A stretch of DNA of 64,000 nt from Eledone cirrhosa (Eukaryota), in contig OZ024760.1 in NCBI GenBank assembly GCA_964016885.1, positions 13,578,001-13,642,000 on the forward strand. Direction: 5' to 3'. How positions within the stretch are numbered: the first letter of the stretch is position 1; every line of letters starts with the position of its first letter. Made by a program: the position numbers and the translations under genes. A model generated the notes under the pieces. It saw only the letters and a program-made list of their open reading frames with translations, searched no databases and was not told where the DNA came from. Shown here one piece after another: positions 7,127 through 47,700 of the stretch.

Positions 7127-7350
7127 ATCAAATTTAATACAGAAATGGCTTCTACAGGACTAGAACAGTTTCATTTGAAAGAAATCATCAGGAAAATCAA
7201 CTATCATTGTAGTACGGTTGGCTTTCCCGATGATTTCTTTCAAATGAAACAGTTCTAGAACTGTAGAAGACATTTCTATATTAAATTTGATGTTTAAACT
7301 CTACTAATGTATTGAGTACCTTACTGTGGTTACCCCCAATTGAACCCAAG
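7127..7350. mobile_element. Fold-back element with a hammerhead motif in each arm (Penelope-like terminal-repeat remnant)
   Basis: ~75-bp inverted arms spanning 7127-7291; the - arm reads ctgatga-tttctttcaaat-gaaa-ctgttctagtcctg-ta; the + arm has ccgatga...gaaacagttctagaactgta. Confidence 0.7.
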
Positions 7351-7669
7351 ACTTATATATATATATAAATAGGTCATCTTTGAACCATATATACACATAT
7401 ATATATATATGTGGCCAAAGGGTGGAGATGGTGAGAGTAGATCTGAAATCACAGAAGCTCACTGAGGAGACGATGACAAAAGAATGCAGTAATTAGAGGG
7501 ATGCTGTGATAGAAAAGATACATCAAACCAAGCTTGGTAATGCTGACATAAAATAATGATGATGATATATATACTGTATACACACATATATCAACCGATT
7601 CGAGTATACGTCCACACATACACACACACATACACCATTTTAACATGATAAAACACACCCAGTCCACCC

Positions 7670-8368
7670 TGTAAAGTGGTGGTGCTGGTACCATGATATA
7701 ATGGTCCCAGTCCACCCTGTAAGTGGTGGTGCTGGTACCATGATATAATGGTCCCAGTCCAGCCTGTAAGTGGTGGTGCTGGTGCTATGATATAATGGTC
7801 CATACAGGCTGTAAAGTGGTGGTGCTGGTGCCATGATATAATGGTCCATACAGGCTGTAAAGTGGTGGTGCTGGTACCATGATATAATGGTCCATACAGG
7901 CTGTAAAGTGGTGGTGCTGGTACCATGATATAATGGTCCATACAGGCTGTAAAGTGGTGGTGCTGGTACCATGATATAATGGTCCATACAGGCTGTAAAG
8001 TGGTGGTGCTGGTGCCATGATATAATGGTCCATACAGGCTGTAAAGTGGTGGTGCTGGTGCCATGATATAATGGTCCATACAGGCTGTAAAGTGGTGGTG
8101 CTGGTGCCATGATATAATGGTCCATACAGGCTGTAAAGTGGTGGTGCTGGTGCCATGATATAATGGTCCATACAGGCTGTAAAGTGGTGGTGCTGGTGCC
8201 ATGATATAATGGTCCATACAGGCTGTAAAGTGGTGGTGCTGGTGCCATGATATAATGGTCCATACAGGCTGTAAAGTTGTGGTGCTGGTGCCATGATATA
8301 ATGGTCCATACAGGCTGTAAAGTGGTGGTGCTGGTGCCATGATATAATGGTCCATACAGGCTGTAAAG
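7670..8368. repeat. 46-bp minisatellite, about 15 copies
   Basis: Unit tgtaaagtggtggtgctggtgccatgatataatggtccatacaggc; period confirmed 7810 to 7856. Confidence 0.97.
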
Positions 8369-41700: not shown

Positions 41701-44700
41701 ATATATTTATATATATATATTTATATATATATATATTTATATATATATATTTATATATATATATTTATATATATATATATATATATTTATATATATATTT
41801 ATATATATATATTTATATATATATATATATATATTTATATATATATTTATATATATATATTTTATATATATATATATATATATATTTATATATATATATA
41901 TATATATATATTTATATATATATATTTATATATATATATATATATTTATATATATATATTTATATATATATATATATATTTATATATATATATATATATT
42001 TATATATATATTTATATATATATATATTTATATATATATATATATATATATATATATATATATATTTATATATATATATTTATATATATATATTTATATA
42101 TATATATATATATATATATATTTATATATATATATATATATATATTTATATATATATATATATATATATTTATATATATATATATATATATATTTATATA
42201 TATATATATATATATATATATATATTTATATATATATATATTTATATATATATATATATATATATATATATATATATATATATATATATATTTATATATA
42301 TATATTTATATTTATATATATATATATATATATATATATATATATATTTATATATATATATTTATATTTATATATATATATATATATATATATATATATA
42401 TATTTATATATATATATATATATATATTTATATATATATTTATATATTTATATATATATATATTTATATATATATTTATATATTTATATATATATATATT
42501 TATATATTTATATATATATATATTTATATATTTATATATATATATTTATATATATATATATATATATATTTATATATATATATATATATATATATTTATA
42601 TATATATATATATATATATATATTTATATATATATATATTTATATATATATATATATATATATATATTTATATATATATATATATATATATATATATATA
42701 TATATATATATATATATATATATATATATATATATTTATATATATATATATATATATATATATATTTATATATATATATATTTATATATATATTTATATA
42801 TATATATATTTATATATATATATATATATTTATATATATATATATATATATATATATTTATATATATATATATTTATATATATATATATATATATATATA
42901 TTTATATATATATATATTTATATATATATATATATATATATATATTTATATATATATATATTTATATATATATATATTTATATATATATATATTTATATA
43001 TATATATATTTATATATATATATATTTATATATATATATATTTATATATATATATATATATATATATATATATATATATATATATTTATATATATATATT
43101 TATATATATATATATATATTTATATATATATATATATATATATATTTATATATATATATTTATATATATATATATATATTTATATATATATATATATATA
43201 TATTTATATATATATATATATATATTTATATATATATATATATATATATATATTTATATATATATATATATATATATATATTTATATATATATATATATA
43301 TTTATATATATATATATATATTTATATATATATATATATATATATATATATATATATATATATATATATATATATATATATATATTTATATATATATATA
43401 TATATATATATATTTATATATATATATATATATATATATATTTATATATATATATATATATATATTTATATATATATATATATATTTATATTTATATATA
43501 TATATATATATATATTTATATATATATATATATATTTATATTTATATATATATATATATATATATATATTTATATATATATATATATATATATATATATA
43601 TATATATTTATATTTATATATATATTTATATATATATATATTTATATATATATTTATATTTATATATATATTTATATATATATATATTTATATATATATA
43701 TATTTATATATTTATATATATATATATTTATATATATATATATTTATATATATATATATTTATATATTTATATATATATATATTTATATATTTATATATA
43801 TATATATTTATATATATATATATTTATATATATATATATTTATATATATATATATTTATATATTTATATATATATATTTATATATATATATTTATATATA
43901 TATATTTATATATATATATTTATATATATATATTTATATATATATATTTATATATATATATATATATATATATATTTATATATATATATTTATATATATA
44001 TATATATATATATATATTTATATATATATATATATATTTATATATATATATTTATATATATATATATATATATATATATTTATATATATATATATATATA
44101 TTTATATATATATATTTATATATATATATATATATATATATATTTATATATATATATATATATTTATATATATATATATATATTTATATATATATATATA
44201 TATTTATATATATATATATATATTTATATATATATATATATATTTATATATATATATATTTATATATATATATATTTATATATATATATATATTTATATA
44301 TATATATATTTATATATATATATATATTTATATATATATATTTTTATATATATATATATATTTATATATATATATATTTATATATATATATATATATATA
44401 TATATATATATATATTTATATATATATATATATATTTATATATATATATATTTATATATATTTATATATATATATATTTATATATATATATATTTATATA
44501 TATATATTTATATATATATATATATTTATATATATATATATATATATATATATATATTTATATATATATATATATATATATATATATATATATATATATT
44601 TATATTTATATATATATTTATATATATATATATTTATATTTATATATATATTTATATATATATATATTTATATATATATATATTTATATATTTATATATA

Positions 44701-47700
44701 TATATATTTATATATATATATATTTATATATATATATATTTATATATTTATATATATATATATTTATATATTTATATATATATATATTTATATATATATA
44801 TATTTATATATATATATATTTATATATTTATATATATATATTTATATATATTTATATATATATATATATATATTTATATATATATATATATATATTTATA
44901 TATATATATATATATATATATTTATATATATATATATATATATTTATATATATATATATATATTTATATATATTTATATATATATATATTTATATATATA
45001 TATATATATATTTATATATATTTATATATATATATATATATATATATATATATATATTTATATATATATATATTTATATATATATATATATATATATATA
45101 TATATATATATATATATATATTTATATATATATATATATATATATATATATATATATATATATATATATATATATATATATATATATATATATTTATATA
45201 TATATATATATATATATTTATATATATATATATATATATATTTATATATATATATATATATATATATATATATATATATATATATATATATATTTATATA
45301 TATATATATATATATATATATTTATATATATATATATTTATATATATATATATTTATATATATATATATTTATATATATATATATTTATATATATATATA
45401 TTTATATATATATATATATATATATATTTATATATATATATATTTATATATATATATATATATATATATATATATATATATATATATATATATATATATT
45501 TATATATATTTATATATATTTATATATATATATATATATATATATATATATATATATATATATATATTTATATATATTTATATATATTTATATATATATA
45601 TATTTATATATATTTATATATATATATATAACGAAGGAAATGTGGTAAGGAACCAGGTGGACCATAACGCACCAAAGTACTCAATACTTGAGGTAGTAGA
45701 GTGGGTAATAGGAACCAGTAAGACCCCGACAGCTGAGCTCAAGCCGTTTCGACGGCTAATTAGCCGTCGAAACGGCTTGAGCTCAGCTGTCGGGGTCTTA
45801 CTGGTTCCTATATATATATATATATATATATATATATATTTATATATATATATATTTATATATATATATATATTTATATATATATATATATTTATATATA
45901 TATATATATTTATATATATATATATTTATATATATATATATTTATATATATATATATTTATATATATATATATTTATATATATATATATTTATATATATA
46001 TATATATATATATATATATATATATTTATATATATATATATATTTATATATATATATATATTTATATATATATATATATTTATATATATATATATATTTA
46101 TATATATATATATATTTATATATATATATATATTTATATATATATATATATTTATATATATATATATATTTATATATATATATATATATATATATATATT
46201 TATATATATATATATATTTATATATATATATATATTTATATATATTTATATATATATATTTATATATATATATATATATTTATATATATATATATATTAT
46301 ATTATATATATATATATATATATATATATATATATATATATATATATATATTTATATATATATATATATATATATATATATATATATATATATATATATA
46401 TATATTTATATATATATATATATATATATATATATATATTTATATATATATATATATATATATATATATATATATATATATATATTTATATATATATATA
46501 TATATATATATATATATATTTATATATATATATATATATATATATATATATATATTTATATATATATATATATATATTTATATATATATATATATATATT
46601 TATATATATATATATATATATTTATATATATATATATATATATTTATATATATATATATATATATTTATATATATATATATATATATTTATATATATATA
46701 TATATATATTTATATATTTATATATATATATATATTTATATATATTTATATATATATATTTATATATATATTTATATATATATATTTATATATATATATA
46801 TATATTTATATATATATATATATATTATATATATATATATATATTTATATATATATATATATTTATATATATATATATATATATATATATATATATATAT
46901 ATTTATATATATATATATATATATATATATATATATTTATTTATATATATATATATATATATATATATATATATATATATATATATATATTTATATATAT
47001 ATATATATATATATATATATATATATATATATATATTTATATATATATATATATATATATATATATATATTTATATATATATATATATATATATATATAT
47101 ATATATATATATATATATATATATATATATATATATATTATATATATATATATATATATATATTTATATATATATATATATATATATAAATATATATATA
47201 TATTATATATATATATATTTATATATATATATATATATATATTTATATATATATAAATGTATAATATATTATATATATATATATATATATATAATATATA
47301 TATATATATATATATATATATATATATATATATATAATATATATATATATATAATATATAAATATATATATATATATATATATAAATATATATATATATA
47401 TATATATATATATATATATATATATATATATAAATATATATATATATATATATATAAATATATATATATATTTATTATATATATATATATATATATATAT
47501 AAATATATTATATATATTTATATATATATATATATATATATTATAAATATATATATATATTTATATATATATATATATATATAATATATATATATATATA
47601 TATATATATATATATATATATATATATATATAAATATATATATATATATATATATATATATATATATATATATATAAATATATATATATATATATATATA

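Follow-up and report, generated by a model that had tools for sequence, protein, structure and literature searches.

A 64,000-nucleotide (nt) stretch of the Eledone cirrhosa genome (GenBank assembly GCA_964016885.1, contig OZ024760.1, positions 13,578,001–13,642,000; hereafter the window) contained a small bulged hairpin that recurred near hammerhead ribozyme motifs in the 3′ ends of Penelope-like elements inserted in (TA)n. The hairpin is the first of two matching hairpins that separate the hammerhead from the start codon in Hydra-type Penelope-like elements, and probably the site bound by the reverse transcriptase (RT) to start copying about 6 bases upstream. The two-hairpin layout was observed with conservation and covariation, and the arms of inserted copies stopped 5–6 nt short of one or the other hairpin, with one end of each kind per mirrored insertion. 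A hairpin-positioned RT was preferred as the explanation because the offset to both ends was fixed while the ribozyme offset varied, and because the two kinds of end were paired within an insertion.

The hairpin was present, with exactly the letters given in a preliminary description of the window, at positions 7298, 23061 and 29920 of the forward strand and 45702 of the reverse strand. Its exact pattern had 57,354 matches (28,811 + 28,543) in the 3.0-Gb genome, compared with 7 for the reversed control. It was shared by four element families, A, B, C and D, whose flanks outside the hairpin aligned no better than shuffled sequences (9/9 comparisons, p 0.15–0.93). The proposed enrichment downstream of hammerheads was borne out by a hammerhead 3′ half upstream of 17 of the 34 motif loci, compared with 128 of 2,040 control positions; these loci comprised the 30 first-listed genome matches, about two thirds of them family C, and the four window sites. 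The hammerhead 5′ core was found as well in only 10 of the 34, because many copies were truncated.

The general form of the hairpin was RCTC-stem-loop-NN-GAGY-RC. A looser descriptor with a 2-nt bulge on the 3′ side followed by RC gave 27 matches in 464 kb of DNA taken irrespective of the motif (window included); of the alternative geometries of the bulge, seven gave 0–1 matches each and one gave 7. Three more variants were located in the window, at 9361, 52566 and 52976, the first and the last by this descriptor. The cleavage triplet lay 32, 35, 30 and 25 nt from the hairpin at the four sites. The spacing of 25–35 nt and the constant stem described earlier held only within this sequence variant; the stem differed in the three further variants, and the hairpin at 52976 lay 57 nt beyond its triplet. 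Three of the four hairpins stood behind a hammerhead. At 45702 only the hammerhead 3′ half was present, and an inverted arm took the place of the 5′ half.

Each of the four sites was the end of a mirrored insertion, with (TA)n flanks at three of them. The long arm contained the hammerhead, the hairpin and a tail, and the inverted arm, if its end was intact, stopped just before the hairpin position. The features of these insertions were as follows.

7127–7218, reverse strand: inverted short arm of family A, ending 6–8 nt before the hairpin position
7220–7272, forward strand: predicted type-I hammerhead motif of family A, with a CCGAUGA core at 7227 and a triplet ending at 7265
7298–7319, forward strand: hairpin 1 and unpaired AC, family A
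7320–7353, forward strand: family A tail to the (TA)n junction, the long-arm end
22899–22975, reverse strand: inverted short arm of family B with hammerhead, stopping a few nt short of the hairpin position (4–8 nt in family B)
22982–23030, forward strand: predicted type-I hammerhead motif of family B, with the core at 22987 and a triplet ending at 23025
23061–23082, forward strand: hairpin 1 and AC, family B
23083–23110, forward strand: family B tail to the (TA)n junction
29736–29783, reverse strand: inverted arm of family A, truncated
29845–29895, forward strand: hammerhead motif of family A, with the core at 29851 and a triplet ending at 29889
29920–29939, forward strand: hairpin 1 of family A, in a copy lacking the conserved AC and the tail
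45630–45676, reverse strand: family C tail, ending 3–6 nt before the hairpin 2 position, in a copy lacking hairpin 2
45677–45702, reverse strand: hairpin 1 and AC, family C
45728–45759, reverse strand: hammerhead 3′ half of family C only, with GAAAC, stem III and GUC ending at 45728
45760–45811, forward strand: inverted short arm of family C, ending 5–8 nt before the hairpin 1 position

Among 199 arms that ended in (TA)n, 186 stopped no more than 13 nt from a hairpin position. When TA microhomology was allowed, 117 of these fitted an offset of 6 nt and 111 an offset of 5 nt; 4 and 7 nt were fitted by 75 arms each, and other values by at most 61. The commonest junctions of families C, D and B, for short and long arms, all included 6 nt, and the short-arm ends of family A were more scattered. 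Head-to-head pairs numbered 28, of which 22 were classifiable as long and short (19), long and long (2) or short and short (1). In an unbiased sample of mirrored insertions, 7 of 7 combined a long with a short arm, and one more was unclassified. In two public runs, sequencing depth decreased by a factor of about 400 at hairpin 2, and the loose ends whose consensus was (AT)n lay 5 nt before hairpin 1 and 3 nt before hairpin 2.

Full-length elements contained two hairpin copies between the hammerhead and the ATG. In family D and an element on contig 5, hairpin 2 lay directly in front of the ATG, shortly beyond the end of the long arm. Hairpin 2 of family C was predicted beforehand from the other families; 434 matches ran past the usual long end, and in the read-through loci fetched from them hairpin 2 followed this end directly. 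Most inserted copies excluded hairpin 2. Identical fixed end positions would also be expected if a host nuclease or termination formed RNA 3′ ends about 6 nt upstream of the hairpins and the enzyme started at those ends, and family A long arms in which hairpin 2 was not found could reflect such ends. This route is distinctly unlikely, since a related element initiates internally, away from the RNA 3′ end (PMC11167929, cited throughout, as are the other papers, from its accessible portions), and since it requires a processing activity conserved over many animal hosts, of which there was no evidence here.

The hairpin-positioned start was also compared with the earlier proposal that the hairpin acts at the 5′ end made by hammerhead cleavage. 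In cleaved unit-length RNA the hairpin would, as proposed, be close to the new 5′ end; action at a free 5′ end found no support. The distance between hammerhead and hairpin was variable: GAAA and hairpin were 46–80 nt apart in 26 metagenomic clusters, and triplet and hairpin 25–57 nt apart in the window, whereas insertion ends lay 5–6 nt before the hairpin. A position tied to the cleavage site was therefore not supported, and 25–35 nt was rejected as a general rule because the spacing varied between families. At least 42 of the 64 family C long arms crossed an intact cleavage site, and 4 of the 64 stopped within 1 nt of it; a fifth apparent case was a 1-nt deletion. Since copies ran through the intact site, we infer a template that was mostly uncleaved or re-ligated at the hammerhead. 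The family C arms whose 5′ limit lay at most 1 nt from this site (loci L010, L013, L081 and L254) hint that some template RNA was cleaved. These four arms, and the location of both hairpins in the 5′ untranslated region (UTR) with hairpin 2 shortly before the ATG, would suit hairpins that protect uncapped RNA, aid translation or recruit protein at the cleaved end, the end positions arising indirectly. Such a role is very unlikely given the variable distance to the cleavage site, the nearly fixed distance to the insertion ends and the arms that cross the site; in addition, insertion of the anole element in vitro was unchanged by hammerhead mutants (PMC11167929).

Conservation of the hairpin was analysed in metagenomic relatives. 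Scanning with 40 aligned related proteins detected 216 relatives, the best of which, 77 loci, formed 58 clusters. A hammerhead followed by at least 130 nt was available in 29 clusters; 26 of these contained the hairpin and 14 contained two, and the open reading frames (ORFs) of the 26 were approximately 35–46% identical to that of family C. Behind the hammerhead, 55 of 67 3′-strand anchors paired through an exact 4-bp lower stem and a pair after the 2-nt bulge, compared with 9 of 171 anchors in ORFs. In hairpin 1, upper pairs one to three were kept in 26/26 (14 U-A and 12 C-G), 22/24 and 20/21 clusters, with shuffle means of 19.6, 13.8 and 9.2, and none of 5,000 shuffles reached the observed values; pairs were counted by script, as MAFFT left the variable loops unaligned. 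The closing pair occurred as G-C, A-U and U-A. Hairpin 1 and hairpin 2 were separated by 57–83 nt (13 clusters). Inspection by eye revealed the hairpin in four of six published Hydra consensus sequences, namely Hydra-2_Amil, Hydra-1_Ajap (two copies), Hydra-2_Ajap and Hydra-1_Crog (imperfect); the Hydra-1_Amil consensus stops before the hairpin position, and Hydra-1_Obim shows none.

Because upper-stem pairs covaried across these divergent relatives, shared ancestry alone was insufficient. The tens of thousands of copies do stem from few families, as a merely inherited and functionless motif would require, and yet the flanks were unrelated between families, the motif was duplicated inside each element, and pairs covaried across 26 clusters with ORFs as divergent as given above; simple inheritance is thus scarcely credible. 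The preliminary description had named an absence of stem conservation beyond ancestry as evidence against its idea of a conserved cis-signal, and the covarying pairs contradict that absence. The hairpin, sought as it had suggested in autonomous Penelope elements, was present in intact elements with RT and GIY-YIG motifs. It is a real, conserved cis-element of a known clade of Penelope-like elements, and apparently an unpublished one. No description of the motif was found in the literature searched, which did not extend to subscription papers and Repbase notes. The Rfam matches listed (150 of 231) included no hammerhead and consisted of microRNA-like matches to simple repeats.

The covarying pairs were mostly Watson-Crick, so a DNA stem is possible, and a GIY-YIG endonuclease that recognises the hairpins in complementary DNA (cDNA) or a tandem intermediate and cleaves at a distance of about 6 nt would also give two ends. 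Recognition by the endonuclease was reported to require the tail in D. virilis (PMC11167929), and the tail has been ascribed to endonuclease-mediated resolution (PMC8557442). Such a DNA signal is nevertheless unlikely: the anole tail ends coincide with RT start sites mapped in vitro (PMC11167929), a one-strand bulged stem-loop is absent from ordinary duplex DNA, and the ends were joined directly to (TA)n targets.

Several observations weigh against RT positioning by a hairpin pair. Only ends at most 13 nt from a hairpin position were scored, and 69 of the 186 scored ends were not compatible with 6 nt, although imperfect reference matching accounts for part of these misfits and TA microhomology blurs most junctions. 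The two public runs may derive from the genome's own source sample. Such a hairpin was not found in three of the 29 clusters, in Hydra-1_Obim or in a 310-bp repeat of the window, and the covariation shuffles ignored relatedness among clusters. The upper stem of hairpin 2 showed no significant covariation across the metagenomic clusters; in family B this hairpin was recovered from three old copies only, with imperfect pairing, and in family A, which makes long arms, it was not found (2 matches, neither a hairpin). Support from folding was weak: the minimum free energy (MFE) structure of the family C region held both hairpins with a region z of -1.27, 5 of 7 isolated hairpin pieces folded as drawn and 2 of 7 otherwise, and the energies, where the hairpin formed, were only -3.7 to -10.7 kcal/mol. 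Two of five metagenomic junction rows (L278 minus and L310 minus) were chance-like and left unused.

In the preferred mechanism, the GIY-YIG domain would cut (TA)n on both strands, and two enzyme molecules, positioned by hairpin 1 and hairpin 2, would each prime from one DNA end. The two cDNAs would then join head to head, and the extra sequence of the long arm, the tail, would correspond to the spacing of 57–83 nt between the hairpins. The anole element, with internal RT starts at the two borders of its tail (PMC11167929), is a precedent. Both starts would be set on uncleaved or re-ligated RNA and not at a cleaved 5′ end, and non-coding family A would borrow the enzyme via the same hairpin. 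We infer the binding, the priming, the use of a dimer and the circular templates from the arrangement of ends and hairpins.

In telomerase, a template-boundary element is a stem-loop whose distance from the template is fixed; it positions the related RT and marks the stop of copying 5′ of the template. The hairpin offers an analogy only, being placed 3′ of its presumed start and present twice. In a more specific and evenly balanced proposal, the hairpin pair would be a clade-wide two-site ruler and a portable signal: each hairpin would dock one RT that starts 6 nt upstream, as in telomerase, 2–4 bases of the template would anneal to the primer left by the cut in (TA)n, and one RNA, possibly circular, would be copied onto both break ends. 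If true, this would account for the Penelope tail, for arms joined head to head and for tandem units, and any RNA could be inserted.

Two coding families were identified. Family C continued upstream into an ORF, and its read-through copies led to tandem 3,531-bp units with an intact ORF of 717 amino acids. The order within the units at L258 was hammerhead, hairpin 1, hairpin 2, ATG and ORF. The protein contained the YRDDG motif of RT and a C-terminal NVIY...YIG (GIY-YIG) motif, SDKTG with DKT instead of DKG, a CxCX5C linker as CNCPDRSIC, and CxxC and CxH as CNLC and CKH. The N-terminal RWK position was RWR in families C and D, a conservative variant. Judged by these protein motifs, which fit the definition of the clade in the accessible portions of PMC8557442, family C is an intact Hydra-type Penelope-like element. 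A first identification as Naiad was dropped since the endonuclease is C-terminal. The insertion target was (TA)n. Relatives of the protein at E ≤ 1e-20 numbered 2,213; the Pfam search gave no match, and nothing was found by comparison with solved structures or in a search of viral contigs. Family D, with SDKTN, was the second coding family and was 42% identical to family C.

Tandem arrays of full-length family C units of approximately 3.53–3.55 kb were seen at L258, L259 and L260, with ORFs intact in the first two and the same frameshifts shared by both units of L260. A 257-bp tandem derivative of family C at L261:1580-2180 had the ORF start joined to the hammerhead middle and three copies of hairpin 1, and could have come from a small circular template. 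The contig-5 element (G000:C5, approximately 50,042,300–50,045,700; L089) was a near full-length Hydra-type element in which both terminal hammerhead-like cores were CAGAAGA and hairpin 2 was a cUUCGg tetraloop.

The family C hammerhead combined a U3-A8 core with a long stem II, compared with CUGAUGA cores in families A, B and D, apart from the CCGAUGA core at the 7298 site. The U3-A8 variant is on record (PMC4209133, as far as accessible). At L258:690-770 stem II was about 60 nt long and internally looped, and canonical descriptors would miss this U3-A8 hammerhead. In family A hammerheads (window 29858–29871) and the 310-bp repeat, a U-U apposition closed stem II where G-C is usual. The MFE folds of three window hammerhead copies contained no hammerhead fold.

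Family A was about 530 nt long; the 30 loci examined started near one point, and no joined ORF was found. Its copies (L195–L224, L105–L134) often had (GT)n before and (AC)n or (CT)n after, not pure (TA)n. A 1.87-kb tandem array containing family A on contig 18 proved to be a composite duplication and not a family A unit. No ORF was reached for family B. Families A and B were therefore filed as passengers or unlinked ends and not as Hydra-clade members.

The closest described system was the Hydra clade of Penelope-like elements with a C-terminal endonuclease (Craig et al. 2021, PMC8557442). It shares with family C a single ORF with RT and C-terminal GIY-YIG, DKT, the CxCX5C linker, CxxC and CxH, a hammerhead close to the 3′ end, insertion into (TA)n, inverted arms with 5′ truncation and tandem units. 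Family C differs in RWR for RWK, in the U3-A8 hammerhead with its long stem II and in its unit of 3.5 kb (3,531 bp), which exceeds the size of less than 3 kb general in the clade, a tendency and not a rule (PMC8557442). Tails were approximately 55–85 nt here and 30–40 nt in that clade. The hairpin is undescribed in the accessible text of that paper, though visible in four of the six consensus sequences supplied with it.

The PAc (Poseidon) element of Anolis carolinensis (Frangieh et al. 2024, PMC11167929) likewise has two internal starts, which lie downstream of the hammerhead and delimit the genomic tail; its targets are AT-rich, and cleavage is dispensable for its insertion in vitro. Its starts are described in an AC-rich stem-loop inside the ORF, with no conserved recognition motif defined in the accessible text, whereas the ends analysed here each lay 5′ of their own conserved hairpin copy in the 5′ UTR; this contrast is by description only. 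Animal retrozymes of the type without long terminal repeats (non-LTR; PMC7229834; bioRxiv 10.64898/2026.07.22.740005) are non-coding, contain a type-I hammerhead and are proposed to be mobilised by Penelope-like elements, and family A behaves like a passenger of this type. Retrozymes form tandem units expressed as circular RNA, whereas family A was not found as a tandem unit of its own and was seen as dispersed, mirrored copies with a fixed 5′ start. No shared recognition hairpin is described in the accessible parts of the retrozyme papers, and the true tandem retrozyme-like repeat of the window also lacked it.

The hairpin pair bears on the selection of start sites by Penelope-like elements and on the origin of the tail in one of the two arms; the lone in vitro study mapped two starts and defined no recognition motif. 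A conserved, duplicated hairpin at a fixed offset makes the choice of start site testable by mutation, and the genome offers an intact 717-amino-acid element. Penelope-like enzymes are the closest relatives of telomerase, and an RNA-positioning element bears on the origin of telomerase-type template use. For repeat annotation, the hairpin marks element ends and non-coding passengers.

Other features of the window were the following.

9361–9388, forward strand: hairpin 1 variant of family E, followed by GC; the MFE fold of the isolated piece differs
22376–22464, forward strand: short arm of family A type with a degenerate hammerhead, triplet ending at 22445, ending 5–6 nt before the hairpin position
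52566–52593, forward strand: degenerate hairpin variant, with a relative in L129 that has a perfect 6-bp upper stem
52976–53002, forward strand: hairpin variant of family F with a 6-bp upper stem, UA bulge and GC, behind a hammerhead 3′ half ending at 52918

The 310-bp tandem repeat was located at 37911–38745 and contained one type-I hammerhead per unit; it was retrozyme-like and without the hairpin. Near-identical copies were present on contigs 21 and 14. A (TA)n-type simple repeat of about 7 kb (38745–45630) occupied the region between this repeat and the family C insertion.

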